Part shown: one piece after another, positions 2,502-59,278 of the stretch
Layout: every line of letters starts with the position of its first letter
Position numbering within the stretch: the first letter of the stretch is position 1
NCBI GenBank assembly: GCA_051878575.1
Contig: JBJEKJ010000099.1
Span: 10,686-74,685, forward strand
DNA from: Muribaculaceae bacterium
GTDB taxonomy: Bacteria > Bacteroidota > Bacteroidia > Bacteroidales > Muribaculaceae
Length of the DNA: 64,000 nucleotides
Direction of reading: 5' to 3'
Program-made: the position numbers and the translations under genes
The notes under the pieces: generated by a model
What the model saw: the letters and a program-made list of their open reading frames with translations, nothing else
Database searches by the model: none
Told to the model about the DNA's origin: nothing

Positions 2502-3296
2502 ATGATTAGTCCATTAGCCCATGTCGACCCTTCTGCCAAATTAGGCAAAGACGTCATAGTCCATCCTTTCGCATTCATTGGTAAGAATGTGGAAATTGGC
2601 GACAACTGCGTGGTTTATCCGTTTGCGAGCATCCTGAACGGTGCCCGCATCGGTAACCGCAACAAGATATACAACGGCGCGATTATTGCCGCCGAGCCAC
2701 AGGATTTTCGCTGGAAAGGCGAGCAGTCGTATTGCTACATCGGCGACGACAATAGCATCCGCGAGCACACGATAATCAACCGCGGAATATCGCCTGAGGG
2801 CGGAACGCGCATAGGCAGCAACTCGTTTATCATGGCTGAGTCGCACATCGCGCACGACACCGTGATAGAGAACCGCGTGGTGATTGGCAACGGCGCAAGC
2901 ATCGCCCCCAACTGCCATATAGCCGGCAATACAATCCTTTCGTCGAATGTAGTGCTCCACTCAGGCAGCCATATCGGCGAGTGGGTGCTGATTAAGGGCG
3001 GATGCCGCATCAGCGGAAATGTGCCTCCTTACGTGATTATGGCCCACAACCCGGTATCGTACTATGGCGTGAACGCATTCGTGCTGCGCCACTGCAAGTT
3101 CTCCGAGGAGGCCATCGACGATGTGGCAAAGGCCTATCGCCACATCTATCAGTGCGGAACGTCGACGTTCAATGCGCTGAAGCGTATAGAAAACGATATT
3201 CAGCCATCGGCTGAACGCGATAACATCCTTAAATTCGTGCGCGACCACAAACTGAAGATTGTGGCAGTGCCGAGCCATGAAGACATAGAGGATTGA
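2502..3296 (+). CDS. lpxA: Acyl-ACP--UDP-N-acetylglucosamine O-acyltransferase
   Basis: 264 aa with left-handed beta-helix hexapeptide repeats followed by the LpxA C-terminal helical domain (GVNAFVLRHCKFSEEAIDDVAKAYRHIY). Confidence 0.9.
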   Translation: MISPLAHVDPSAKLGKDVIVHPFAFIGKNVEIGDNCVVYPFASILNGARIGNRNKIYNGAIIAAEPQDFRWKGEQSYCYIGDDNSIREHTIINRGISPEGGTRIGSNSFIMAESHIAHDTVIENRVVIGNGASIAPNCHIAGNTILSSNVVLHSGSHIGEWVLIKGGCRISGNVPPYVIMAHNPVSYYGVNAFVLRHCKFSEEAIDDVAKAYRHIYQCGTSTFNALKRIENDIQPSAERDNILKFVRDHKLKIVAVPSHEDIED

Positions 3297-3324
3297 TAGA
3301 TTTTTTTCATATTTGGTCGAAAGA

Positions 3325-3358
3325 AACGCCGTGGAGGATTTGCCCTCCACGGCGTTTT
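3325..3358. terminator. Bidirectional intrinsic terminator between lpxA (+) and the lipoprotein gene (-)
   Basis: Perfect 13-bp stem aacgccgtggagg / cctccacggcgtt with a 6-nt loop. T-runs lie on both strands. Confidence 0.75.
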
Positions 3359-3460
3359 GACTAATTGCATTCGCAAATCGCCTGTTCTTCGGAAATATTT
3401 AATGAGTTTTTCTTTTTCCTATTTGAGCTGAGAATGTGTTCAAAACTCAAAATGCGGTTA

Positions 3461-4069
3461 TCATAATCCGCGTGAGAAAGAAACTTGCGTCATAACGCCC
3501 GATTTGATTTCTACGGTAATTTTGCCGCAAGCAGTCTGGATGCCCTTGCGCATTGTCTCCCTTGCTGCTGCCACCTTCTCGGGATTATCAGGATATTTCA
3601 GAATGTTGTGATAATTCTTTGTGATCTCACCATATTTCTCACTGTTGAGCTCATTTTTCGAACCCTTTTGATAATGAGTCACCAATTTGCACACAGGTGT
3701 CATTTTAAATGAAAAAGCGTCTTGTGTCACCTCCTTGTCGTTGTTCTCGGCCACTACCTGAAGGGTGAAAGTGGTGTTGGTAGCCGATGTGATGTTGCCC
3801 AATTGCTGCTTCAAGTTGAATTTCTGGCCCGGTTCCACCTTTATTTTCTCGGATTTTCCGTTGAAATCGGTATAGACCACGTAGGTGTTGAAAAGCATGT
3901 CGATGTCACCGCCAAACACATTGCTATACTCAAGATCCACACCTATGAGTGAGCCAAGACCATCGCCGCTATCCGGCTCATTGTTGTCGTCGCCACCACA
4001 AGAAACCATGCCGAATGATAGGCATAAAGCCATCATCGCAAAAAAAATCGCTTTAAATTTTTTGTCCAT
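3461..4069 (-). CDS. Hypothetical lipoprotein
   Basis: 202 aa with signal peptide and lipobox (LSFGMVSCGGDD). It is downstream of, and on the same strand as, the TPR-LuxR regulator. AT-richer than its neighbours. Confidence 0.6.
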   Translation of the reverse strand: MDKKFKAIFFAMMALCLSFGMVSCGGDDNNEPDSGDGLGSLIGVDLEYSNVFGGDIDMLFNTYVVYTDFNGKSEKIKVEPGQKFNLKQQLGNITSATNTTFTLQVVAENNDKEVTQDAFSFKMTPVCKLVTHYQKGSKNELNSEKYGEITKNYHNILKYPDNPEKVAAARETMRKGIQTACGKITVEIKSGVMTQVSFSRGL

Positions 4070-4209
4070 AGTAAATTAATCAATTATTACATTTATAAAT
4101 GTTTGAATCGCAAAGTTACATATTATATACAAAAAGAGCAAACCGCGCGATATACAAATATATATACAACTGCGCAAAACGGCTATTTATTACGCTTTAC
4201 AAAATCATG

Positions 4210-6285
4210 CTATTTCACGCTCACGAGGGCCTGCAACACATCTTCAAGCGATTCGGCCTTGTCGAGATTCAACTTACGGCGCATGCGATGACGCATAATG
4301 TTCACACTTGTTCGTGCGATGCACATCAAGTCGACTATGTCGTCGGTGGTTTGACCCAAAGCTATCAGCATGCACAGAATCTCCTCACGGCGGGTCACAC
4401 CCGGAGCCATCTCGCGCAGCGAATTGATGAACTGCGGATACATGCACGTAAAGCGATAGCGGAATCGCGATTCACCATCCTCTCGCAATGTTTTCGGAGT
4501 GAGCGTGGTGAAACGCTTGACAGTAGCCTCATCGCTGTTAAGCTCTTTGATGCGCTCCTCCATAAGCTCACAATTATGATTCACTTCGTGCAGGTTGTCA
4601 ATGAGAGAGTCGATTTGCTGCCTTGCCATTATGCTCTTGATTTTATAGATGCGTCGCTTCACGAGCATCCATGCCACACAAAATCCGAGCAAAATGAGTA
4701 GCAACACCGATAGAGCCACATAGTATTTGATTTGCAAGTTCTTCTTCTGCACCTCCATCTCGGCAGCCATAACCTGAGCTTCATTCTTCTCGGAATGGAA
4801 TCGCAGCATCTGTCCTATTATCGAGTCGTAGGTCTTTGAGTTGTAGAAAAGACTCAGCTCCTTGTTGAGTTTGCGGGCATAAAGCTCGATTTTCTCCTTA
4901 TTGCCGGTTGATAGGTAATAATCGAGGGCAAACTTATAGGCTTTTTCCACGTATATGGGGCGCTCAGTGAGGCTAAGCAGGTTTCTCATACTGTCGAGGC
5001 TGACCTCGCATCGCTTGAAATCGCCCGCACTTCTATAGCCCTCGGCAAGGAGAAAATAGGCCTTGGCCCGTGTTTCGGCGACAAGCGATTTGGTCACCAC
5101 ATTCTCAAGCCGTCGCATTCCGGTCTCCCGGGGAATCACGATTGAGCTATCCTCTACCGACATTTCACCTATGGCGGTCTCAAGATCGGCCATTCCGCTG
5201 TCGTAGGGAAGCGAGCACAGCACGCTGTCGGCAATGTTCCAGTAAACAATCGCTGAATCCGGCTTGTTCTCCTGCCGCATTATGCGCCCTTTCATCATCA
5301 ATGCATAACCCTGCATTTTTGGGTCGCTCATTTTCCCCATCTGCTCCGACTCATAAAGCGCCTGCCGATTGTAAACCTCGGCAAACTGAGGCATGTTGTA
5401 AGTCAGGTACAAGTCGGTGAGCATCACGCATGTCCACACGATGCTTGGGCTGTCTTTGCAATCTTCGGCCACCTTGTAGCTTTTCCTATACATATCAATG
5501 GCCTTGCTCACTTCGCCGGTGCGCTGATATAGCGAGCCGAGCATCGACGTGAGCCAGTGCAATCCCATCACATCCTTTTCCGCCATGGCGATATCAAGGC
5601 AAGATTCGCACCATCTCATCACATCATTCTGCCGCTCGGGCAATTCAAAGCATGCGGCGGCGGCGTAGGTGTAGATCATAAAGCGTCGGTTGGCCGGCAG
5701 GCTGTCGGCGCCCAAAGCCATAGCCTTGTCGATGGCCTCGGCAGCATCCTTCGGCTGATAATTGCGAGAAAGGGCATATCCCAGCACGGCATAAGCGTCG
5801 GGCATCAAATATCGGGCCACTATGGGAGTGGGGTTGTCGGCTAAAGCACGCAGTCTGTCGACACAAGCCTGAGGCTCACCTTTCATTTGATAGCAATTGA
5901 GCAATTGTATCAGCGACCAGTGCGCGTTATCTTTTATTGAGCTCCACCGCACGCTCATCGTGTCGGCCGGAATTTCCACTTTCAGCACGTCATCGAATTT
6001 TACTATCGCCGAGTCCTGCTCGCCCTTGAATTCCGCTCCACGAGCCCTAAGCATGAGGCAGAACGTTTTCACATCCAAGCGGTCCTTTGCCATTGGCCCG
6101 TCTTCAATCGACGCCACTTCTCGGAGCACCGAGTCGGCATTGGATGTGGTGTAGGCTTTATCAAGTTCCGAGCATCGGCTCAGCAGCTCGTCGACTGCCG
6201 AATCCTCGTGACTTGCACAAGCTGACACTAATGTAATTAAGAACAAATTAATTACAGATAATATGATTCTATTGGCTATGTTCAT
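4210..6285 (-). CDS. Membrane-spanning one-component regulator: N-terminal anchor/lipobox, TPR-like sensor region, one internal TM helix, C-terminal LuxR-type HTH
   Basis: 691 aa. N-terminus LFLITLVSAC, then a long helical-repeat region. Internal TM helix YYVALSVLLLILLGFCVAWMLV. C-terminal GerE/LuxR HTH (REEILCMLIALGQTTDDIVDLMCIARTSVNIMRHRMRRKL). Confidence 0.75.
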   Translation of the reverse strand: MNIANRIILSVINLFLITLVSACASHEDSAVDELLSRCSELDKAYTTSNADSVLREVASIEDGPMAKDRLDVKTFCLMLRARGAEFKGEQDSAIVKFDDVLKVEIPADTMSVRWSSIKDNAHWSLIQLLNCYQMKGEPQACVDRLRALADNPTPIVARYLMPDAYAVLGYALSRNYQPKDAAEAIDKAMALGADSLPANRRFMIYTYAAAACFELPERQNDVMRWCESCLDIAMAEKDVMGLHWLTSMLGSLYQRTGEVSKAIDMYRKSYKVAEDCKDSPSIVWTCVMLTDLYLTYNMPQFAEVYNRQALYESEQMGKMSDPKMQGYALMMKGRIMRQENKPDSAIVYWNIADSVLCSLPYDSGMADLETAIGEMSVEDSSIVIPRETGMRRLENVVTKSLVAETRAKAYFLLAEGYRSAGDFKRCEVSLDSMRNLLSLTERPIYVEKAYKFALDYYLSTGNKEKIELYARKLNKELSLFYNSKTYDSIIGQMLRFHSEKNEAQVMAAEMEVQKKNLQIKYYVALSVLLLILLGFCVAWMLVKRRIYKIKSIMARQQIDSLIDNLHEVNHNCELMEERIKELNSDEATVKRFTTLTPKTLREDGESRFRYRFTCMYPQFINSLREMAPGVTRREEILCMLIALGQTTDDIVDLMCIARTSVNIMRHRMRRKLNLDKAESLEDVLQALVSVK

Positions 6286-8054: not shown

Positions 8055-10427
8055 ATGAGAAAGATTTTTAGCTTATTGCTAATGCAAGGTGTTGCCGCCG
8101 TGGCCATTGCAGGTGCCCCGGCCGCCGCCGATCGTGCTAATGTGAAAGTCTATGAGGCCCCCGAGGTGATATCAACCGAGGCTTTGGGCAGTGAACTGAG
8201 GCTTCAGGTGGTGAAACTGCCCGACGGCACCCTTCGCAAGCGTGTGGTGAGCGCCTTTGGCAGCTCACAACAGCCTGCGGTGGAGATTTCGCCGAAGTCG
8301 GTGATTCGTGCCGAGGCTACGGCTCAGGGAGTGCCATTCCATGAGAATTTTGAGTCGTGGGACGGAAAGACCTACGACTGGATTCCCGAGGGATGGACCG
8401 ACGTGTCGAAAGTTGACCCACCTAACGTGGCGCCCGAGGATCATGGCATCAACCCTACGTGGCAGGTGGAGTCTCCGAGTTGGGACGTGAGCATCGACGG
8501 CAAGTATTTTGCCCGTATTGCCAACCACTATTATTCCGACAAGGAGACGGGCGCGCTCGTCAACAAGCCTCAGGATGAGTGGCTCATTACTCCCACTGTG
8601 CGGCTTGAGGAGGATAATTGGCTCTATTTCTACCTCTGCTATCACCCCGGATGGGTGTTCTTCAACTCGCAGAACTACACTTTCACGAGCTTGAACAACG
8701 TGATGCAGGTGCAGATTTCCGACGATGGAGGCGCCACATGGACGATGCTGTGGAGCTGCCTTGAGGATGCGCAGAAATACACGCAAAGGGAGCTTATGAA
8801 CAGCCTTGCGTCGCTCACCGGCACATGGATTCCGGTACGGGTGCCGCTCACCGACTATGCCGGCAAGGATGTGAAGGTGGCCTTCAGATATGTGGGCATC
8901 AACGGCGAGTCGATGGTTATCGACGCCGTGTCGATAAAGAAGCCCGAGCCACAGGCTTACTACACGATACCTATCGGCTCGTTCTATAGCGGTTTCGACG
9001 TGAACCAGACATTGCCCGAGAAAAGCAGCCTGCTGTGCGGGCCGTTCAAGCCCATCACATTCTACAATGTGTCGAATATCGACTGCGAGACCTTCAAGTG
9101 GGAGTATGTCGATGAGGACGGCAATAAGGCTGAGACCGACGCCGAGGACCTGAGCGTGACCTATGAGCCCGGAGAGTATGACGTCCCGTCGCTGACCGGA
9201 ACCGCCGGAACAAATGCCACCTCGACGTATGCAATCGACTGCGACTTCATACGCGCCGGTGGCAGCAATGCCGTGACCACAGCCGAAGGAAAGGTGGAAT
9301 ACGGCGCCTGCAACTATAATACGAAAAAAGGCGTGGGCTACTACAACGTGTCGGGAAGTTTCCTTTTCGGAACCGGCAGCGACAGCTTCTGGACGTCGTA
9401 TATCAATATGGACAACGTGAAGGTGAAGCTGACGGCTATCTGCAACTATTTCCCCGCTCCCAACCACTCCTATTGCTTCGACAAGGTGTGGGTGAGCGCC
9501 ATTGCGTTCGCCAAGCCTGAGGCTATGTTCTCGCTTGAAATCAGAAGGGTGCTCGGCAACGGTACTATCGAGAGTACTCCGATTGCGGTGGCCGATTGCC
9601 GCGGCTCGGATCTTATCAATACCACTCGCGACGGAATCATCTATGCAACCTTGCCTTTCGACCTCGGACGCTATGTGACAGTCGACACCGGCTTGTTCAT
9701 GAAGCTCACCGGATTCACCGACGCACAGAATGTGTCGGAGTTTGCCGCGCTCAGCCAGCTTGTGCCAAATGCCGATGGCACAAACTATGCCTATATCTAC
9801 CTCACCGGATACCTCGGCGACCAGACCGACGACCTGCTGATTCCGGCATCGCACATCAATAGCTCGGCAGGTGTGCTTAACACTGCCATGTGCTTCAATA
9901 TGAACGCCAATTTCACTTGGATTGAGTGCAACGACCCATATTTCTATGCTGCCGAGCAGAAGCAGTCGAAGGGACTGAAATTCTACACTCAGTTCCGTGC
10001 CGAGGACTTCACTATCACCGGCGATGGTGTGGGCGATTGGATTACATATAAGTTTGGAACTTATAATGAGGAGACGAGCCAGCAGCTGCTCACGCTCACC
10101 GTGGCTGAGAACACCGGGCACAATCGCCAGAGCGACGTGTCGGTGTCGGTTCCGGGCTCCACTTGCGTGGTGCAGGTGATGCAGGACGGCCCGCTGGGTG
10201 GTGTGGCTGCCGTGAAGATTACGAAGTCGGCAAGATTTGAGGGCGAGAACCTCGTTCTCACCGGAGCCGGAGGCACCACGGTGGCCGTCTACAACGCTAT
10301 GGGTGTGAAACTTGCCGAGCAGGCAGTGGAAGGCGACAATGCCGTTGTGGGCGTGCCTGTGGCAGCATCGTCGGGACTCTATGTGCTTAAGTTCAGCGAC
10401 GGAACGGCAGTGAAAGTGATTAGATAA
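8055..10427 (+). CDS. Secreted T9SS cargo protein with choice-of-anchor-J-like N-terminal domain, BACON-like module and Por/T9SS C-terminal sorting domain
   Basis: 790 aa with a signal peptide. FHENFESWDGKTYDWIPEGWTD motif. BACON-like segment (DWITYKF...NRQSDVSVSV...VQVMQ). C-terminal sorting domain ending GLYVLKFSDGTAVKVIR. Confidence 0.7.
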   Translation: MRKIFSLLLMQGVAAVAIAGAPAAADRANVKVYEAPEVISTEALGSELRLQVVKLPDGTLRKRVVSAFGSSQQPAVEISPKSVIRAEATAQGVPFHENFESWDGKTYDWIPEGWTDVSKVDPPNVAPEDHGINPTWQVESPSWDVSIDGKYFARIANHYYSDKETGALVNKPQDEWLITPTVRLEEDNWLYFYLCYHPGWVFFNSQNYTFTSLNNVMQVQISDDGGATWTMLWSCLEDAQKYTQRELMNSLASLTGTWIPVRVPLTDYAGKDVKVAFRYVGINGESMVIDAVSIKKPEPQAYYTIPIGSFYSGFDVNQTLPEKSSLLCGPFKPITFYNVSNIDCETFKWEYVDEDGNKAETDAEDLSVTYEPGEYDVPSLTGTAGTNATSTYAIDCDFIRAGGSNAVTTAEGKVEYGACNYNTKKGVGYYNVSGSFLFGTGSDSFWTSYINMDNVKVKLTAICNYFPAPNHSYCFDKVWVSAIAFAKPEAMFSLEIRRVLGNGTIESTPIAVADCRGSDLINTTRDGIIYATLPFDLGRYVTVDTGLFMKLTGFTDAQNVSEFAALSQLVPNADGTNYAYIYLTGYLGDQTDDLLIPASHINSSAGVLNTAMCFNMNANFTWIECNDPYFYAAEQKQSKGLKFYTQFRAEDFTITGDGVGDWITYKFGTYNEETSQQLLTLTVAENTGHNRQSDVSVSVPGSTCVVQVMQDGPLGGVAAVKITKSARFEGENLVLTGAGGTTVAVYNAMGVKLAEQAVEGDNAVVGVPVAASSGLYVLKFSDGTAVKVIR

Positions 10428-10461
10428 TAGATATTACATCTCCAAAAAACATAAGGAATAT

Positions 10462-12150
10462 ATGAGAAAGCATGTAATTTTATTGTGCGCGTGCGCTATG
10501 GCTATTGGCGCTCAGGCCGGCAACACGGTGTATCCCGTGGCTAAGAGAGTGGCTCCGAAGACTTCCACAAAAGCTGTGGCCGCTCCTACCGATGTGCATT
10601 TTGCCTTGCCCGAAGGCTGCTTCTGGTTTGGCGACATAGGTGCGAGAAGCAGTTATTACTACTATATGTGCAGCTCGATTGTAGCGCCGGCACACACGCC
10701 CATCACTATCAAGAATGACGGCTCGGCCGAGGGTGAGTATACCTGGGCATACTGCGACCCCACTCACTACAGCTATTCGATGAAAGACTTCAGCATGCTT
10801 AGTGCCGACACGCGTGACCTGACGTTCGAGTCAGATTGCTACAACTTCGTGCAGGTGCCCACGCTCACAAGGACACTCAACGGCACTTCCACCGATTGGA
10901 CCATGCCCACCAACTACTACCTGTCGCTGCTTCAATTTGGCGGCGTGCCGGGCGACTTCATCTATGGTAATGTGCCCGGTGAGGAGGAGAAAGGCCATTT
11001 CGGCTTCATGCAGTGGAACTTCAACTCGGCGTATGTGAACCTCTTTGCGAGCTCCGACCTGAAATCCTACGTTTTCGGCAAGGGCGGACAGACTACCGAG
11101 GCCGGAATCACCGGATTGGCTGCGATGTTCCATCAGCCGGCGGCTCCCTACGTGATTCGCGGTGGCTTGAAGGCTTTCATGACGATTAGCTGCGACGACG
11201 ATGCCGAGCTAACGGTGACGTTGCGCCGTGCCACGAAGGTGAGCGATGAGGAGTATGACCTCGGAGCCGAGCTCGGACACTGCACACTGAGTGGAACCGA
11301 GTTGAAGAAAATGATCCGCGAGCCTATCGGCGACGACTATCTCGGATTCTTCACTTTCAAGGATTTCACTCTCACTAATGAGGAAGGCAATGAGGTATCG
11401 GTGATGCCGCTGACGATAAATACGCCCATTGCGGTGGTGTTCAGCGGTTGGCAGTCGTCGAAATTCGAGAAATTCGAGATTTTCACCAATGAGCAGGTGC
11501 TCGACAGCAATAAGCAATACGACGCTATCGGCAACTCACGCATAGAGACGTCGACGTTCTGGACAGGCGGCCCCTACGGCAACAAGGCTAAGGCCCGATT
11601 CAAGAACTTTGTGGGCGTGGTGACGCTTGATGCCTTCTTCCCCATTCTCCACGTCGATGCCGAGGGCTATGACGCTCCTGCCGAGGGTGGTACGCAGTCG
11701 TTCAAAGTCGACCGCTATCAATATGCGGCTGAAGAGTCGTTTGCTGCCACATGCGAGGCCGATTGGGTAACATGCAAGGCCTCTTATGAGAAGGGGGTAC
11801 GCAATTATGGCGGCGTGCTCGAAATCACTGTCGAGCCCAACGAGGGCGAGGCCCGCAGTGCCGTGGTTGTGCTTACCGATACCGATGGCTCGCGCACTGA
11901 GTTCGTGGTGACACAGGCAGCGTCGGCAGGTGTCGATGGCGTGGCTTCCGATGCGGCAAGCGCAGCGCTTGAGGGTGGTAGCCTCGTGGTGCGTGGCTAT
12001 GCCGGAATGGTCGAGGTGTATGGTGCTTCGGGAATGCTCGTGAAGTCGCTCAATGTCGATGGTGAGACAGCGGTTTCGGTAGCCGAGCTTCCAAGCGGAG
12101 TCTACTTCGTGCGCTTCGATAATGGCAATGTGTCGCGTTTCATAAAGTAG
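10462..12150 (+). CDS. Secreted T9SS cargo protein with BACON-like module and T9SS C-terminal sorting domain
   Basis: 562 aa with a signal peptide. BACON-like segment (EADWVTCKAS...GEARSAVVVLTDTDGSRTEFVVTQ). C-terminal sorting domain ending SGVYFVRFDNGNVSRFIK. Confidence 0.7.
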   Translation: MRKHVILLCACAMAIGAQAGNTVYPVAKRVAPKTSTKAVAAPTDVHFALPEGCFWFGDIGARSSYYYYMCSSIVAPAHTPITIKNDGSAEGEYTWAYCDPTHYSYSMKDFSMLSADTRDLTFESDCYNFVQVPTLTRTLNGTSTDWTMPTNYYLSLLQFGGVPGDFIYGNVPGEEEKGHFGFMQWNFNSAYVNLFASSDLKSYVFGKGGQTTEAGITGLAAMFHQPAAPYVIRGGLKAFMTISCDDDAELTVTLRRATKVSDEEYDLGAELGHCTLSGTELKKMIREPIGDDYLGFFTFKDFTLTNEEGNEVSVMPLTINTPIAVVFSGWQSSKFEKFEIFTNEQVLDSNKQYDAIGNSRIETSTFWTGGPYGNKAKARFKNFVGVVTLDAFFPILHVDAEGYDAPAEGGTQSFKVDRYQYAAEESFAATCEADWVTCKASYEKGVRNYGGVLEITVEPNEGEARSAVVVLTDTDGSRTEFVVTQAASAGVDGVASDAASAALEGGSLVVRGYAGMVEVYGASGMLVKSLNVDGETAVSVAELPSGVYFVRFDNGNVSRFIK

Positions 12151-18751: not shown

Positions 18752-18981
18752 TTTTATGCAAAGATAGTGCAAATCGAGCGTAGAACGCCAAGTTTACTTG
18801 AGCGTTATGCCGAGATGCAGCCTATTTTATGCAAAGATAGTGCAAATCGAGCGCAGAACGCCAAGTTTACTTGAGCGTTATGCCGAGATGCAGCCTATTT
18901 TATGCAAAGATAGTGCAAATCGAGCGCAGAACGTCAAGTTTACTTGAGCGTTATGCCGAGATGCAGCCTATTTTATGCAAA
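18752..18981 (+). repeat. Head-to-tail tandem array: three full 73-bp units plus an 11-bp start of a fourth. Each unit carries a minus-strand TATCTTTG -7 promoter box and a bulged hairpin.
   Basis: Units start at 18752, 18825, 18898 and 18971. Unit sequence: ttttatgcaaagatagtgcaaatcgagcgcagaacgccaagtttacttgagcgttatgccgagatgcagccta. Only 2 substitutions occur among the copies. Confidence 0.95.
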
Positions 18982-19026
18982 TGTACTACAAAAAAGTGGA
19001 ATATGGAAGAATGAGTCGGCGTATTC

Positions 19027-20113: not shown

Positions 20114-20171
20114 GTAAACTTGGCGTTCAATGGCGTTCTGTGGCGTTCTGCGCTCGATTTGCACTATCTTT
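20114..20171 (-). repeat. Partial inverted copy of the 73-bp repeat with an internal 10-bp triplication (tggcgttcNN x3)
   Basis: ggcgttctgcgctcgatttgcactatcttt (20142-20171) is the exact reverse complement of 30 bp of the 18752 array unit. tggcgttcaa, tggcgttctg and tggcgttctg lie at 20121-20150. Confidence 0.9.
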
Positions 20172-20205
20172 ACATCCAGATAACCATAGTCTCGAAAAAA
20201 AGTAT

Positions 20206-20213
20206 TAACTTTG
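20206..20213 (+). promoter_or_regulatory. -7 promoter box candidate (TAACTTTG) upstream of the methyltransferase gene
   Basis: Matches TAnnTTTG. No clear -33 TTTG at the consensus spacing. Confidence 0.35.
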
Positions 20214-20349
20214 CATCAAAATCTGCGATTGCCGCTGACAAAGGCCGCTCAATGTAAGTAATTATTTATCAATATATAACGTAGCTTCCTCGTATCCGCA
20301 AAAGGTTTGGTCGCCTGTCAGCCTACTTGGGAGTTCCTCACTTGTTAAT

Positions 20350-22233
20350 ATGGCAGAAAAGAAATCATTTCTTAAAGGGAAAAAGCCGATTACCTTTCTT
20401 GACCTCTTTGCCGGTGCGGGAGGCATAAGCGAAGGGTTTCTTCAGGCATATACCTCTGATAAATATTTCAAGTTTATTCTTGCAAGCGATATTAACGAGA
20501 ATTGTGAGTTGACCCATATAGTAAGATACAATCATCAGTTAGGACTTGACACTAAGTTTCTTACTGCTGATATTATGGCTCCGGATTTTATACAGCGTCT
20601 GCTTGCTCAACTCGGAGATGAGGAAATTGATGTTGTGACAGGCGGTCCGAGCTGTCAGTCTTTCAGTTTGTCCGGCCGTCGCAGACGCTTTGATAAAAGG
20701 GATAATCTTTTCCTTCACTATCTGGCTGTTATCCGCAAATTGCGTCCTAAATACTTTGTTATGGAGAATGTCAAAGGACTTCTGACGAAAGACAAAGGGA
20801 AATTCAAGGATGCGATACTTCGTGAAATACGTTCTATTATCGACGATAAAAATATACCCTCATTTCTTCTGTTCCTTATTCGGCTTCTTGACAAAAACAC
20901 ATCATCGTTTGTCAAAAACTGTGTCCTTACAAAAATAAAAATGGAGGTTGCGGATGATGAAACGGCACGCTCTGAGCGAGACAATTATTTTGCCACACTT
21001 GAAGCACAGTTTAAGTCGATTACACGAAAAATAGACTATCGTCTCAGTAAATCCAATATCAACATTGCGACAATTCGACATGGTCTTAACCTACTCCGCC
21101 GAACCGATGAAAGAAACGCAATCTCCGCTGCTATCATCAATGAAAAAATGCAGGCTGACATTGACAATGATTTCTTTGTCAACCAGTTCAACAATTTCAT
21201 ATCGTTCATTGATGATTCGACGATAATAAACACCATCCTTTCTGCCATCGACACTTTCGCAGAGTTCGACAGCTCCTCTAACGATGTAGAGGAGTTCCGG
21301 GAAATGATAAAACTTTATTCCTATACGCTCGATGAGACATTCTCTCTTGTAAGGGATTTATCCAAAAGCAAAAAGGAAATCGAGGAGCTTGACAAGCATC
21401 TCGAAGATATAAGACTTTACAGGGTCGCTAAGCCAATTGTCGCTCTCGCTGCCGATTACGGCGTTCCGCAAAATCGCGAGCGAGTGCTTTTTATTGGCTG
21501 CCGAAAAGACCAAGAGCTTATAGATGCTGTTCCTCCCACTGTTACTGAGGAAGAAAAGGTAACAGTATATGAAGCTTTACACGATCTTGACTTCTTAGGT
21601 AACGGTGCCGTAGCAGAGACTTACGGCGCACAGCGTATAATGCCTGAATTTGAGCCGCTTATTCGCTGTCGTGAAGTGCAAGGCCATATTTCGGATGCCG
21701 AAGAAACACACACATTCTCCGAATGGTCTAAGATAGGCCGTTTCGGTCACAGGTTCGATTTCTGTTGTGAGCCTTTCTATGTTCGTTCTCTCGAAGACTT
21801 GAACAACAATCTTTTCTGCGAGGCTCCGGTTCTATACAATCATCAGACAAGCTCACAGAGCGATGATGTAAAAGAAAGACTCTCTATCATAGCCAAACAC
21901 GGGGTATATGACGAAGACTGCAAAGTCGAACTTACGCAGTTAGGTTTGGAATCCAATAAGAGAAACTATACCGTCCTTAATCCTAAAGGTCAAAGTCCTA
22001 CCGTAGTCACGATGCCTGACGATTTCATCCATTATGCCGCACATAGAGCAATGACAGTTAGAGAAATGGCACGTCTCCAATCTTTTGATGATTCATTTGT
22101 TTTTCAAGGGAAACGCCAAACCGGAGGCACCAAGAGAAAATCGGAGATTCCGCAATATACACTTGTTGGCAATGCCGTGCCTCCGCTGATGGCAAGGGCT
22201 ATAGCCAATACCATTCTTAAACACATAAAGTAG
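20350..22233 (+). CDS. DNA (cytosine-5)-methyltransferase, unusually long (627 aa)
   Basis: Motif I FLDLFAGAGGISEGF, motif IV GGPSCQSFS, motif VI ENVKGLL, motif VIII YGVPQNRERVLFIG, motif IX MTVREMARLQSF, motif X TLVGNAVPPLMARAIA. About 233 aa separate ENV from QNRER. Confidence 0.92.
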   Translation: MAEKKSFLKGKKPITFLDLFAGAGGISEGFLQAYTSDKYFKFILASDINENCELTHIVRYNHQLGLDTKFLTADIMAPDFIQRLLAQLGDEEIDVVTGGPSCQSFSLSGRRRRFDKRDNLFLHYLAVIRKLRPKYFVMENVKGLLTKDKGKFKDAILREIRSIIDDKNIPSFLLFLIRLLDKNTSSFVKNCVLTKIKMEVADDETARSERDNYFATLEAQFKSITRKIDYRLSKSNINIATIRHGLNLLRRTDERNAISAAIINEKMQADIDNDFFVNQFNNFISFIDDSTIINTILSAIDTFAEFDSSSNDVEEFREMIKLYSYTLDETFSLVRDLSKSKKEIEELDKHLEDIRLYRVAKPIVALAADYGVPQNRERVLFIGCRKDQELIDAVPPTVTEEEKVTVYEALHDLDFLGNGAVAETYGAQRIMPEFEPLIRCREVQGHISDAEETHTFSEWSKIGRFGHRFDFCCEPFYVRSLEDLNNNLFCEAPVLYNHQTSSQSDDVKERLSIIAKHGVYDEDCKVELTQLGLESNKRNYTVLNPKGQSPTVVTMPDDFIHYAAHRAMTVREMARLQSFDDSFVFQGKRQTGGTKRKSEIPQYTLVGNAVPPLMARAIANTILKHIK

Positions 22234-22239
22234 CATATC

Positions 22240-23457
22240 ATGATACACATGCGCCCATACAATGCTTTTGAAACCAAAAATGTCAAATTCTTGGTTGACA
22301 AGCAGGTGGAATTTGCAACAATACAAATCACCGAAACCGGATTAAAGAAAAGCATTTTGGATGCAACAGCTCCTGTTCGTGCTTATTTTAAGGAGAAGAA
22401 CATTCATGACTATGAAACCCAACTTCAAGGTCCTGAACACAAGCGCGTCGTAGACACATACATACTCACGGAGGAAAAACAGCACCATGCAAAGACCTCT
22501 CTTTATAGACCCGTCACAAAAAAAGGCGACCCTCGCCTATGGGTAAATAAAGTTAGGGATGTGGAGTTCCTTCGTGCAAATGATATTTTCGCATTTATCG
22601 CGCACAGAGGTATCCTTTTCACCATAAACCTTACGACTGTAAACATTGAAAAAGTTTGTATGTCGCCCATTGATACGCCATTGAAGGATTTGATTTTTGA
22701 AATCTCTTGCCGGAAAACTTCTATCAGCAACGAATTGCTTGAATTGATAAAGGATAGAATGTCTGACTGGATGCCCGCTGAAATATTGGCTGATACCGGT
22801 ATTGGACGAACCGTTGAATCAGTTCTTGGTATAGACATGAATCCTTCAAAGAGACCTGATTATAAGGGCATCGAATTAAAAAGCCATCGCGAGGCATCCA
22901 AAGTACGCAACACACTATTTACTCAAGCGCCCGAATGGGCTATAAGCCGGTTAAAAAGCGGACGAGCTATTGTTGAAGAGTATGGTTATATCCCTGACGG
23001 ATACATTCATAAATCTTTACACGTCACACTTACAGCGAACAGGCCAAACCCACAGGGTCTCGGTCTGTTAGTTCAACCACAATTAGGTATATTGGAAGCT
23101 GACGAGTTCGCGCGGATAGCGTTGGATGATGGCTCTTTCAGAAAAATTAATGACGTTGCGGCTTGGCAACTTATAAATCTACATGAACGCTTGCTTACAA
23201 AGCATCATGAGACCTTTTGGATTGAAGCGGAGACCAAAAAAGAATCGGGCCAAGAATATTTCCGCGTGTCGCAAATTCTCCACACCAAGAATCCTATTAC
23301 TTCTCAGTTCGATGTCCTTCTTGATCAAGGACAAATCACTGTGGACTTTTTGCTTTGCCGTGATTCCGGCGGTGACACTTACAGCTTTAAGATAAATGGA
23401 AAAGCCCGACACCTATTATTCCCACAGAGCGAAACGTATAGGCTTCAATCCATTTGA
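22240..23457 (+). CDS. Putative Type II restriction endonuclease: unassigned N-terminal module plus C-terminal BcnI/MvaI/MutH-type PD-(D/E)XK core
   Basis: 405 aa, starting 6 nt after the methyltransferase stop. The segment GIGRTVESVLGIDMNPSKRPDYKGIELKSHR matches the MutH/Sau3AI/BcnI pattern (G.G..E..LG......D-x4-E-x-K). It shares the AT-rich composition of the methyltransferase gene. Confidence 0.6.
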   Translation: MIHMRPYNAFETKNVKFLVDKQVEFATIQITETGLKKSILDATAPVRAYFKEKNIHDYETQLQGPEHKRVVDTYILTEEKQHHAKTSLYRPVTKKGDPRLWVNKVRDVEFLRANDIFAFIAHRGILFTINLTTVNIEKVCMSPIDTPLKDLIFEISCRKTSISNELLELIKDRMSDWMPAEILADTGIGRTVESVLGIDMNPSKRPDYKGIELKSHREASKVRNTLFTQAPEWAISRLKSGRAIVEEYGYIPDGYIHKSLHVTLTANRPNPQGLGLLVQPQLGILEADEFARIALDDGSFRKINDVAAWQLINLHERLLTKHHETFWIEAETKKESGQEYFRVSQILHTKNPITSQFDVLLDQGQITVDFLLCRDSGGDTYSFKINGKARHLLFPQSETYRLQSI

Positions 23458-23649
23458 TAAATCTACAAGTCAGTTAGCTATGCCTAACGGCCGCAGATTA
23501 AAGGCGGCATTCTGTGCTGTGGTATGTTTTTTGGGGTGAGATGCGTAATAATAGAAAAATTTTGTGTAAGTTTGTTGGCTAAAGACGCTCAGGCTCTCGG
23601 CCGGGGCGTGTAATATGGCATTATGTAACGAAAAAAACTATTTTGGCAA

Positions 23650-29035: not shown

Positions 29036-29761
29036 TTATATAAATCCCGCTAATTGCCGCTCCATACACATAACCTCATATTGTCTGGATATGTCCTCGT
29101 AGGAATGGAACTTCACTCTATTTTTAATATCTTTGAATGCCGTTCGGCTCATTACCTTCTCAAATTGCTCTCGTCTATTACAAGGAGCAACAATTATGAA
29201 TCGGCTGTTGAAGTCTTGAAGATCGCAGAATTTTATTACTGAGTTTTGTATATCAGTTGAGTGCTCTATCTCAAAGAAGCTATTAGGCATTTTGCGCTCG
29301 TTAAACCAAATGACATCAATGGTGCGAGCTCGATTTATCAAATTGTCATACGAAAATTTGGGGATTTGAACGGTTGAGCAGATTTCTATCAAAGGCTTGT
29401 CCAAAAACAACTTGTTTTGGTCTTGTGCAGGCACAAATGTGGTGAAATTTTTCATATTGCCTATTGCAGTGACAAGACCTTGGTAGTAGCCGTGAGTAAA
29501 TATCTCGTGGGGCTTTATTTCTTTGGTCCCTAAATTGAATTTACCGAGCACTTCTTCTCTGCAATCTTCCAAGGCCCACAATCCGGGTTGAATCTTGAAT
29601 ATTTCTTTTGAAAGCTGAACTATTTGGCGGATTGAAGCCTGTGGGGTTTTTGTTGCCCATGATGATGTGTCAACGAGATTATATAGGCTTCCGAGTGTAG
29701 CGTAGCCTCCATTCTTTCGCAGGGCATCGATGACTTGTTGCTTTTGTGTTTGTTTTGCCAT
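29036..29761 (-). CDS. Hypothetical protein: N-terminal winged-helix (HARE-HTH-like) plus C-terminal restriction-endonuclease-like domain
   Basis: 241 aa. N-terminus QVIDALRKNGGYATLGSLYNLV...FKIQPGLWALED resembles HARE-HTH. C-terminal half has a candidate acidic centre, D149 (IDVIW) and E164/E166 (FFEIEHSTD). Strongly AT-rich relative to both flanks. Confidence 0.5.
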   Translation of the reverse strand: MAKQTQKQQVIDALRKNGGYATLGSLYNLVDTSSWATKTPQASIRQIVQLSKEIFKIQPGLWALEDCREEVLGKFNLGTKEIKPHEIFTHGYYQGLVTAIGNMKNFTTFVPAQDQNKLFLDKPLIEICSTVQIPKFSYDNLINRARTIDVIWFNERKMPNSFFEIEHSTDIQNSVIKFCDLQDFNSRFIIVAPCNRREQFEKVMSRTAFKDIKNRVKFHSYEDISRQYEVMCMERQLAGFI

Positions 29762-29783: not shown

Positions 29784-30626
29784 TTAGTGGGGGAGGGTTT
29801 CGCGGGCGGTTTTCAGCATGTGGGTGGGGAGCGAGCCTCCGCGCCGGTCGGGTGCGGGACCTATCATGTGATTGCCGCTGTTGCTCCTTAAGTTGTCGAT
29901 TATGCCGAGTATGGCCCCGCCCAAATCCACGCCGAAGGAGTGCTTGCCGAGTTTGAATGATGGTGCCACGATGGGCATCATCGTCCAGCGGTTCATGAAA
30001 GGATCGAACATGCGCCTCACGCCGAGCTCCAAGCCGAAGGCTGATCCCGTCTGATACCGTATCGAGCCTCCGAAGCAGGAGTGGTTCATATAGGGTATTG
30101 CCGCGGGCGAGTCGAATGGGTTGCCGGCTGAATAGTTGCCAAACACGCTAAGCGACAGCCGCTCGTTGATGTGATAGGTGATGCTGCCCGATACGCCGAA
30201 GTCGTTGTATAGATTTCTGTTGACGTGGTATTTGTAGCCCGATATCGCGCCGGTGAGTGTCAGGCTGCCGAGGTTTTGAGCAATGCCTATCGTGGCGCTG
30301 CCGAAATTGCCCAATCCCGGCATCGACGTGTAATTCCCGTAGCCGAATGTGCTGCCGTCAAGTCTGCCCGTGTGGAGGCTTTCATTGAGCCTGAGGGCTT
30401 GAGGCTGGTGTAATGCCGGCCTGTTGCCGCCGAAGTCACGGACGGGACTGGTGCCTATGCCGTCGTAGCTTATAGTGTCGGGCAGAAAGAGCGAGTCGGG
30501 CAAGGTAAGCTGCTCATACGGCAATGTCTTGCTGCCGGCGATGCCGGTAGACGTGTCTTGCGCCTGCATGGAGGCCGGGGCACACATCATCATGCAACAG
30601 ATTGACAGAAATACGGGATTTTTCAT
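29784..30626 (-). CDS. Hypothetical secreted, beta-rich (outer-membrane-like) protein
   Basis: 280 aa with a signal peptide (CAPASMQAQD). Gly/Ser/Tyr/Asn-rich alternating segments suggest a beta-barrel. Confidence 0.45.
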   Translation of the reverse strand: MKNPVFLSICCMMMCAPASMQAQDTSTGIAGSKTLPYEQLTLPDSLFLPDTISYDGIGTSPVRDFGGNRPALHQPQALRLNESLHTGRLDGSTFGYGNYTSMPGLGNFGSATIGIAQNLGSLTLTGAISGYKYHVNRNLYNDFGVSGSITYHINERLSLSVFGNYSAGNPFDSPAAIPYMNHSCFGGSIRYQTGSAFGLELGVRRMFDPFMNRWTMMPIVAPSFKLGKHSFGVDLGGAILGIIDNLRSNSGNHMIGPAPDRRGGSLPTHMLKTARETLPH

Positions 30627-35819: not shown

Positions 35820-35930
35820 TTGTTGCCATTGCGCTCGATTTGCACTATCTTTAGATAAGATAGGCTGCATCTCGGCAATGCCAATCAAGTAAACTTGTTG
35901 CCATTGCGCTCGATTTGCACTATCTTTGCA
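35820..35930 (-). repeat. Variant copies (one partial plus one full unit) of the 73-bp repeat family. The TATCTTTG -7 box points at the ATPase gene.
   Basis: Shares the blocks taggctgcatctcggca, tcaagtaaacttg and tgcgctcgatttgcactatcttt with the reverse complement of the 18752 unit. The hairpin arms differ in sequence but stay complementary. Confidence 0.9.
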
Positions 35931-36017
35931 GCCGAAAGGTGGAATTTCTGTGTTATGTTTGTGTGTAGCAATAGGATAATACAGCTATTCTTATAAATTT
36001 ATGACATTATAAATAAG

Positions 36018-59099: not shown

Positions 59100-59173
59100 G
59101 CCTCTTTAGCTCAGTTGGCCAGAGCACGTGATTTGTAATCTCGGGGTCGTTGGTTCGAATCCGACAAGAGGCT
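59100..59173 (+). tRNA. tRNA-Thr (anticodon UGU)
   Basis: Cloverleaf. Acceptor gcctctt/aagaggc, D arm gctc-agttggcca-gagc, anticodon loop tTTGTaa, T arm gttgg-ttcgaat-ccgac. Confidence 0.9.
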
Positions 59174-59186
59174 CAGAAAAAAACGA

Positions 59187-59269
59187 GGGTGGTTACCAGA
59201 GTGGCCAAATGGGACTGACTGTAACTCAGTTGTCTTTCGACTTCGGTGGTTCGAATCCATCACCACCCA
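59187..59269 (+). tRNA. tRNA-Tyr (anticodon GUA), long variable arm
   Basis: Acceptor gggtggt/accaccc, anticodon stem actga/tcagt with loop cTGTAac, T arm ggtgg-ttcgaat-ccatc. Confidence 0.9.
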
Positions 59270-59278
59270 CAAAACAAT

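Follow-up and report, generated by a model that had tools for sequence, protein, structure and literature searches.

A putatively mobile Type II restriction-modification gene pair of gut Bacteroidales with a two-domain, UbaLAI-like nuclease

The chromosome of a Muribaculaceae bacterium carries, between a host AraC-family gene and argH, a compact cassette of two genes on the + strand, in which a C5-cytosine DNA methyltransferase (MTase) is followed after only 6 nucleotides (nt) by a nuclease. The cassette lies at 20163-23460 of the 64,000-nt stretch analysed here, hereafter the window (GenBank assembly GCA_051878575.1, contig JBJEKJ010000099.1, positions 10,686 to 74,685 of the forward strand), and its features are listed in Table 1. 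The initial annotation, made from the sequence alone, described it as an AT-rich, horizontally acquired Type II restriction-modification (R-M) system, and the extents of both open reading frames (ORFs), the gap between them and the base composition all agree with that description. The cassette has a GC content of 0.421, compared with 0.516 elsewhere in the window, and no other 3.3-kb stretch of the 64 kb is as poor in GC. The contrast is sharper at third codon positions (GC3), with values of 0.416 for the MTase and 0.411 for the nuclease vs 0.66-0.77 for the genes of AraC, an acyltransferase, ArgH, an aldo-keto reductase and an M24 peptidase. The AraC gene itself is host-like in this respect (GC3 of 0.663) and the foreign block therefore starts after it. 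As had been reported, the ORF list of the window holds no integrase, transposase, controller protein or Vsr gene adjoining the cassette.

Both products can be assigned to well-defined families. The MTase scores above the curated cutoffs of PF00145 (E=2.5e-52, 178.7 bits, cutoff 22) and TIGR00675 (E=2.5e-43, 149 bits, cutoff 100.65), matches the PADLOC model MTase_II (9e-77), and contains motifs I, IV, VI, VIII, IX and X in the same order as canonical C5-MTases such as M.HaeIII (1dct) and M.HhaI, with the target recognition domain between motifs VIII and IX, so that it is complete, as had been claimed. One feature speaks against a straightforward assignment: a Pro before the catalytic Cys of motif IV is near-universal in C5-MTases, whereas C102 of the window enzyme is preceded by Ser (GGPSCQSFS). 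The nuclease belongs with the MvaI/BcnI-type enzymes: its residues 175-394 match PF15515 (MvaI_BcnI) with E=7.3e-54 and 183.6 bits (cutoff 25), a Pfam scan returned nothing besides, and R.MvaI (2oa9) is recovered with E=6e-10 by the single sequence and 2e-30 by the family profile, which also finds BcnI in the PDB (7e-15). Residues E193, D207, E212 and K214 (D207-x4-E212-x-K214) align with E36, D50, E55 and K57 of MvaI and are either invariant or conserved to 90% or more among 75 diverse homologs, in keeping with the D207/E212/K214 signature picked out earlier. The nuclease thus shares both the Pfam family and the catalytic E-D-E-K arrangement with R.MvaI (CC/WGG) and R.BcnI (CC/SGG, 2odh). Of the 'BcnI/MvaI/MutH-type' label that the nuclease had been given, the first two names stand and the third does not: no MutH or Sau3AI chain in the PDB was matched by the nuclease (E<=1) or by its family profile (E<=10), nor did the Pfam scan point to either, and the literature relates these enzymes to MvaI/BcnI-type nucleases at the superfamily level only. 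The window nuclease departs from R.MvaI and R.BcnI in two respects. These are single-domain proteins (238-249 amino acids (aa) in the PDB chains; ~240-250 aa in the family), whereas it has 405 aa and a separate, confidently folded N-terminal domain (N-domain) of 165 aa; and the MTase partner of R.MvaI is of the N4-cytosine type, whereas its own is of the C5 type.

Table 1. Features of the cassette and its borders, in window coordinates
Feature	Position	Strand	Protein length or residues	Remarks
Incomplete, inverted copy of the 73-bp unit repeated in the host DNA	20114..20173	.		Abuts or overlaps the left end of the cassette
Upstream region travelling with the cassette (promoter-like boxes and 5' leader of ~135 nt)	20163..20349	+		blastn; alignment of nine cassettes
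Promoter-like box TAACTTTG	20206..20213	+		TA..TTTG columns invariant in 9/9 aligned cassettes
Leader helix P1 (GCTGACA/TGTCAGC)	20234-20240 with 20316-20322	+		RNAalifold
Leader helix P2	20243-20247 with 20308-20312	+		RNAalifold
C5-cytosine DNA methyltransferase (MTase)	20350..22233	+	627 aa	
MTase motif I, FAGAGG			aa 20-25	
MTase motif IV, GGPSCQ	20641-20658		aa 98-103	
MTase motif VI, ENV			aa 139-141	
All-helical insertion domain of the MTase	20845..21411	+	aa ~166-354	METHYLTRANSFERASE insert, between motifs VI and VIII
MTase motif VIII, QNRER			aa 374-378	
MTase motif IX, REMARLQ			aa 571-577	
MTase motif X, GNAVPP			aa 607-612	
Nuclease	22240..23457	+	405 aa	
N-domain of the nuclease	22240..22734	+	aa 1-165	Probable DNA-binding module
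MvaI/BcnI-type PD-(D/E)XK catalytic and recognition domain	22735..23457	+	aa 166-405	
Weak terminator-like hairpin and T-run	23504..23535	+		47 nt past the nuclease stop, beyond the block common to cassettes

The association of the two genes is the rule rather than a peculiarity of this locus. In one-genome-per-species data, full-length relatives of the nuclease were found at 80 loci (49-88% identity), mostly in Bacteroidales, with some in bins labelled Oscillospiraceae or otherwise, and in all 67 loci whose upstream gene is complete, that gene is the long MTase, immediately before the nuclease. In the single exception (L037) GC-rich DNA of ~5.4 kb separates the MTase homolog (2755-4626) from the nuclease homolog (10001-11227, with a shorter ORF of 350 aa). 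The whole module, including an additional ~190-aa insert of the MTase and the N-domain of the nuclease, occurs in at least 79 other species. In the database at large the nuclease has 4439 homologs (E<=0.001), of which the best 120 are 81-100% identical to it, measure 383-406 aa (nearly all 402-406), come from Muribaculaceae/Bacteroidales assemblies and, wherever the source gives a name, appear as MvaI/BcnI family endonucleases. The 'unusual architecture' attributed to both genes was thus an overstatement: both layouts are the norm of a large family.

The claim that no mechanism could be read from known relatives proved too pessimistic as well, given that the layout of the nuclease has a characterized precedent, which is not Sau3AI, the comparator chosen initially, but UbaLAI. 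UbaLAI has 405 aa, with a B3-like, EcoRII-N-like N-domain (1-164; PDB 5o63) and an MvaI-like C-domain (165-405), and is a monomeric Type IIE enzyme cutting CC/WGG, in which the N-domain, acting as a tether, lets a single active site nick both strands (PMC5766183). The window nuclease has the same length and practically the same domain boundary (~165/405 vs 164/405), and its N-domain is predicted to be beta-rich, with best fold matches of the same B3 class as the N-domain of UbaLAI (UbaLAI-N). Its conserved blocks T31-R47 and K68-W101 coincide in position with the N-arm (31-43) and C-arm (75-94) of UbaLAI, whereas the UbaLAI DNA-contact residues N32, R37, H38, Y84, R86, Y87, E89 and R91 are unmatched at those positions. 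A further point of comparison is R.EcoRII, a Type IIE enzyme for CCWGG with a Dcm-type 5-methylcytosine (m5C) MTase, which likewise fuses an effector to a catalytic domain, has an m5C partner and may even share the target, but which is a dimer with a catalytic domain of another family and an N-domain that has no profile similarity to that of the window nuclease; the Dcm model NF007772 matches just the N-terminal catalytic part of the window MTase (40.7 bits vs a cutoff of 710).

On balance we favour, as moderately probable, the reading that the cassette is a mobile Type II R-M operon with the order M then R, which encodes a UbaLAI-like monomeric nuclease with a tethering N-domain and is most likely directed at CCWGG. 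The MTase would methylate a cytosine of the target site at C5 and so protect the host DNA. The nuclease, a predicted monomer with one PD-(D/E)XK site as in MvaI and BcnI, would nick first one strand and then the other, and by analogy with UbaLAI it probably does so while tethered: the N-domain would bind DNA and serve either as a tether or, as in Type IIE enzymes, as an effector on a second copy of the site. Such a second-site requirement could favour efficient cleavage of foreign DNA with multiple sites and provide a safety catch for the host chromosome. Because a controller protein is absent, the appearance of the MTase before the nuclease would probably be timed by gene order and the tight coupling of the two genes, possibly with the help of a structured leader.

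The target, CCWGG or a close pentanucleotide relative, is a tentative assignment, which on the sequence evidence we would give about an even chance; and a system of the same architecture and mechanism with another target, be it CCNGG, CCSGG or an unrelated short site, with the avoidance of CCWGG described below being an anti-restriction adaptation to systems of the hosts, is a realistic though not a favoured possibility. MvaI is a far better match to the family profile than BcnI (2e-30 and 7e-15, as given above). The base readers of MvaI give a mixed picture, in which four have equivalents in the window nuclease (T68, T102, D207 and R230, corresponding to T225, T263, D369 and K384) and three do not. 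An indirect but informative indication comes from the cassettes themselves. In 140 cassette genes (67 MTase and 73 nuclease genes) CCWGG occurs 49 times vs 180 expected from synonymous-codon shuffles (z=-12), a 3.6-fold depletion; 45 of the 67 MTase genes and 56 of the 73 nuclease genes are free of it, and the cassette in the window has none. Among the 512 strand-merged 5-mers CCWGG is the fourth most depleted, behind CTAG-containing words alone, and its observed/expected (O/E) ratio under a maximal-order Markov model is 0.28 in the cassettes vs 0.75 in their flanks. GGSCC, GGWCC and GATC are depleted in the cassettes too, which suits another target, but for GATC and GGWCC the depletion differs little between cassette and flank.

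Several observations weigh against CCWGG. The central-base and CC/GG readers R209, H223 and H225 of MvaI are replaced by L371, G377 and D379, with the loop alignment around 374-382 being uncertain. MvaI is blocked by N4-methylation and not by 5-methylation of cytosine; an enzyme identical to MvaI would therefore escape control by an m5C MTase such as the one encoded here, in place of the N4-methylcytosine MTase M.MvaI. Since MvaI tolerates 5-methylcytosine and the present family is always paired with C5-MTases, the base readout must differ in detail from that of MvaI, and the caution of the initial annotation that specificity could not simply be copied from such a relative was well placed. CCWGG is, moreover, under-represented in Bacteroidales DNA generally: the host DNA of the window is poor in it (19 sites vs 94, 78 and 32 expected under Markov models of order 1, 2 and 3), and host DNA is equally poor in it with or without the cassette. 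Avoidance at the level of the host was accordingly discarded as a read-out of specificity, as 56 cassette-bearing and 56 control loci gave the same result (median O/E of 0.61 vs 0.63; pooled Markov O/E of 0.75 vs 0.76). With cassette-bearing hosts no different from controls, the avoidance seen in the cassettes could reflect CCWGG systems of other hosts. In favour of CCWGG, on the other hand, sporadic methylation of this site is reported for Bacteroides isolates (PMC10333322), in a listing from which the type of modification cannot be read. Other words are also avoided in the host DNA outside 20163-23460, namely CTAG (0 vs ~105 expected), CATATG (0 vs 17), CTGCAG (2 vs 17) and GATC (68 vs 226), which suggests pressure from other restriction systems in the lineage.

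A second question concerns the N-domain. The nuclease may be an ordinary Type IIP enzyme, in which the catalytic domain alone cuts single sites and the N-domain serves for autoinhibition, for contact with the MTase or as a non-specific DNA anchor. We consider this unlikely, despite the example of MvaI and BcnI, which are efficient as single-domain monomers and search DNA by sliding and hopping. A search with residues 1-170 by themselves yields a family of 666 clusters (50% identity), drawn from several phyla and consisting mostly of proteins of 390-420 aa with the same layout, in which the domain is kept at full length and its polar and basic residues are strongly conserved; these include the motif S87-L-Y-R-P-x-T-K-x-G-D-P-R-x-W101 and the positions T31, K37, I39, D41, A42, R47, H56, Q61, G64 and K68. 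The AlphaFold2 model of the domain is compact and confident, with a predicted local distance difference test score (pLDDT) of 95.2, and its best fold matches in the PDB, which are also the sole credible ones, are the sequence-specific DNA-binding B3 domains of plant LEC2, FUS3 and VAL1, with template modelling (TM) scores of 0.54-0.62 (target-normalized) and probabilities of 0.5-0.85; BfiI-C, a B3-like recognition domain, matches much more weakly. Furthermore, in UbaLAI, the one characterized enzyme of this layout, double-strand cuts need the N-domain.

The case for a UbaLAI-like N-domain is tempered by the searches for its relatives. The Foldseek E-value of the B3 matches is just ~0.15, and neither 5o63 nor EcoRII is among the best 50 PDB fold matches. 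The family profile, when run against the PDB, does not find 5o63, though it finds MvaI and BcnI; no Pfam match to the domain was obtained in 77 family members; and hhalign, controlled with a reversed sequence and with EcoRII-C, aligned the domain with genuine EcoRII-N from plasmids at a probability of 0.2%, the same as the reversed-sequence control. These searches, like those of the PDB with the single sequence, were all negative for a sequence link between the N-domain and known effector domains, and the nuclease is therefore grouped with UbaLAI by its presumed way of working and not by N-domain family. The lack of detectable homology to proven effector domains fits the Type IIP alternative, and so does the company that the domain keeps elsewhere, which would suit a generic DNA- or partner-binding module: it is fused to a HerA/FtsK-type ATPase, to a MORC-type HATPase (HATPase_c_3) and to a MerR-type helix-turn-helix (HTH)/RNA-polymerase-alpha C-terminal-domain protein, and is internal or present twice in MvaI_BcnI proteins of 447-616 aa (these fusion and internal or double-copy cases being family members P0202, P0244, P0147, P0126 and P0199). 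Since the fusion partners act on DNA, the same fusions count in favour of the UbaLAI-like design as well. The domain is also present in a virus in stand-alone form, as a protein of 127 aa (BFVD A0A646QVF9) that has the fold of the N-domain (Foldseek E=4e-6, TM of 0.63, 18% identity).

It is very improbable that the nuclease is instead modification-dependent (Type IIM/IV-like), with an N-domain that reads methylated DNA and an MTase that is unrelated or antitoxin-like: Type IV enzymes often combine a reader with a nuclease and the N-domain is as yet uncharacterized, but the domain has no fold match in the PDB to SRA, YTH, EVE or winged-helix readers, the nuclease is nearly always accompanied, at a distance of a few nt and in the same orientation, by an MTase of one subfamily, and a methyl-dependent nuclease would be suicidal in a host that methylates itself with the same specificity.

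As to its origin, the predicted R-M gene pair appears to be a self-contained, horizontally acquired and mobile unit that is common in gut Bacteroidales. In blastn comparisons, the nearest cassettes (L001-L006) resemble the window from 20163-20251 up to 23405-23462; DNA similarity is thus confined to ~20163..~23460, and the moving unit therefore comprises ~190 bp of upstream DNA and the two genes. None of the 80 other cassette loci has AraC or argH nearby or shares its flanks with the window, and the neighbours differ in every species; on long contigs the genes to either side of the pair are unrelated housekeeping genes, without an adjoining integrase or transposase. Other Muribaculaceae species carry homologs at 81-88% identity in different contexts, and full-length two-domain homologs of the nuclease (36-40% identity) are found on plasmids of Vibrio, Moritella, Phaeobacter and Acinetobacter, where they are paired with C5-MTases of 470 and 525 aa that are without the MTase insert; one of these plasmid systems has an HTH gene upstream and another a Vsr gene. 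The expectation that relatives would lack the cassette at this site was borne out in part. It is upstream of argH in none of 55 ArgH relatives (at most 78% identical; a metagenome scan, without upstream synteny), and the exact empty junction was not found, the sole other contig encoding the same ArgH being that of a 99.4% identical sister strain (L081), which carries the cassette at the same site, and no record being found for the AraC product. Foreign composition, varied contexts, absence at argH in relatives and shared ends together support horizontal acquisition, as initially proposed. That the cassette is instead an ancient core component of the lineage, with a low GC content due to gene-specific constraints, is scarcely credible: the shared site in the sister strain and the missing empty site would suit it, but not the gap in GC3, the flanks shared with none of the 80 loci, the relatives without a cassette next to argH or the closely similar homologs elsewhere in the family.

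In the sister strain both genes are truncated early by frameshifts. The MTase gene has lost GA after motif I (L081 4865; window 20511-20512) and the nuclease gene has undergone an A7-to-A6 slip within the N-domain motif (L081 6870; window 22517-22523). These changes could represent either decay of the system or, in the case of the homopolymer, an assembly error or a phase-variable tract.

The MTase has features of its own. Its alignment with M.HaeIII breaks at aa 159 and restarts at aa 363, which leaves ~190-200 extra aa between motifs VI and VIII and agrees with the ~190 aa noted before; M.HaeIII, M.HhaI and other canonical C5-MTases are without this helical insertion. The AlphaFold2 model of the insert comprises 11 helices (pLDDT of 87.6 as a whole, exceeding 90 through most of the core), and its fold has no match in the PDB (TM<0.36, probability<=0.33). 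The insert is 188-193 aa long in 67 species, and the MTase segment that holds it measures 208-213 aa in every locus, even where the identity of the insert falls to 27-40%. Its conserved residues are Y230, S233-K234-S235, T241, R243-H244-G245, K266 and D272-N273-D274 (full-protein numbering). Matches in profile searches with the insert are confined to PF00145 proteins. The match to a 615-position PADLOC model of Type II MTases spans the point where the insert region begins, and long-insert MTases are therefore present in REBASE-derived sets. We would guess that the insert is a lineage-specific accessory domain contacting DNA or a partner. The consensus of the insert-bearing family retains the Ser-Cys of motif IV, whereas the partner MTases of the proteobacterial nuclease homologs, in which the helical insert is absent, have GGPPCQ. 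A further segment, GK-x-TGG...PQYT between motifs IX and X, sets the window enzyme apart from canonical C5-MTases but is shared with these proteobacterial partners.

The upstream region that travels with the genes contains the promoter-like box TAACTTTG, which matches TAnnTTTG, the Bacteroidetes -7 promoter consensus. Downstream of it, most of the nine close cassettes have in common a leader of ~135 nt, for which two helices are predicted (Table 1). A covariance model built from the nine sequences (R1) found four further leaders in more distant cassettes, each ending at the ATG of its own MTase. In the 13 distinct sequences, 91.9% of the cells of the alignment are paired vs 28-43% with slid partners, 10 pairs have changed on both sides, and one position of helix 1 occurs as U-A, A-U and C-G. 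Some caveats apply: the sample of 13 sequences is small and was aligned by fitting to the model, and the leader as a single sequence folds no more stably than its shuffles (z=0.33). Rfam has no match to the cassette or the leader. A cis-regulatory RNA is a plausible reading of this pattern of substitutions. A bolder interpretation, which we find rather doubtful, would have such a leader replace a controller protein in timing the expression of MTase and nuclease, the helical insert tune modification, and the N-domain represent an undescribed family of sequence-specific DNA-recognition domains, B3-like in fold and unrelated in sequence to EcoRII-N and UbaLAI-N, that has been shuffled in defence systems among MvaI-like nucleases, HerA/FtsK and MORC ATPases and HTH proteins.

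At the level of the whole, the module is already known, being widespread and annotated at the family level, with a nuclease layout for which there is a characterized precedent. What is new lies in its parts: a family of N-domains that lacks annotation, a helical insertion in the MTase without a structural relative, the Ser-Cys of motif IV and the covarying leader. None of this overturns the current understanding of R-M systems. The module is one of the restriction barriers commonly met in Muribaculaceae, Prevotella and other gut Bacteroidales, organisms that are hard to manipulate genetically, so that knowledge of its target (probably CCWGG, with m5C) would help in the design of DNA that escapes it. 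For enzymology, it would add to UbaLAI itself another, independent case of the same design, in which a monomeric MvaI-like nuclease is combined with a tethering domain, and it draws attention to an N-domain that has neither a Pfam model nor a solved structure and that also occurs in ATPase-based systems.

The left border of the cassette had been placed at a copy of a 73-bp repeat, which is right in substance: the reverse complement of this repeat (family D1/D2), GTAAACTTGGCGTTC...GCGCTCGATTTGCACTATCTTT, matches at the cassette end as a partial inverted copy. Three tandem copies lie at 18752-18992 between the acyltransferase and AraC genes, and two more at 35820-35948, ~16 kb off. AraC thus lies between repeat arrays of opposite orientation, with the tandem copies to one side of it and the partial inverted one to the other; the sister strain has additional inverted copies at the junction of AraC and the cassette. 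The unit includes TATCTTTG, which resembles a Bacteroidetes -7 promoter box. Past the other end of the cassette, the hairpin and T-run listed in Table 1 correspond to the one site found in a terminator consensus scan vs 0.4 expected, which is not evidence of function.

The cassette had also been described as the only clear defence locus in the window, which is doubtful. An ORF of 241 aa at 29036-29761 on the - strand is recognized by a PADLOC model for Type II restriction enzymes (E=9e-13) and is AT-rich and foreign-looking (GC3 of 0.43), so that the cassette may not be the sole defence-type gene in the window. Its counterpart in the sister strain has a precomputed match to PF27126 (NmeDI_C). 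No methyltransferase was seen beside this ORF, and the neighbouring gene at 29784-30626 (- strand, 280 aa) is host-like in composition (GC3 of 0.74) and without a family match. Elsewhere in the window, at 59147-59277, two direct repeats of 35 nt with GGTTCGAATCC resemble the T-arm/acceptor ends of adjacent tRNA genes.

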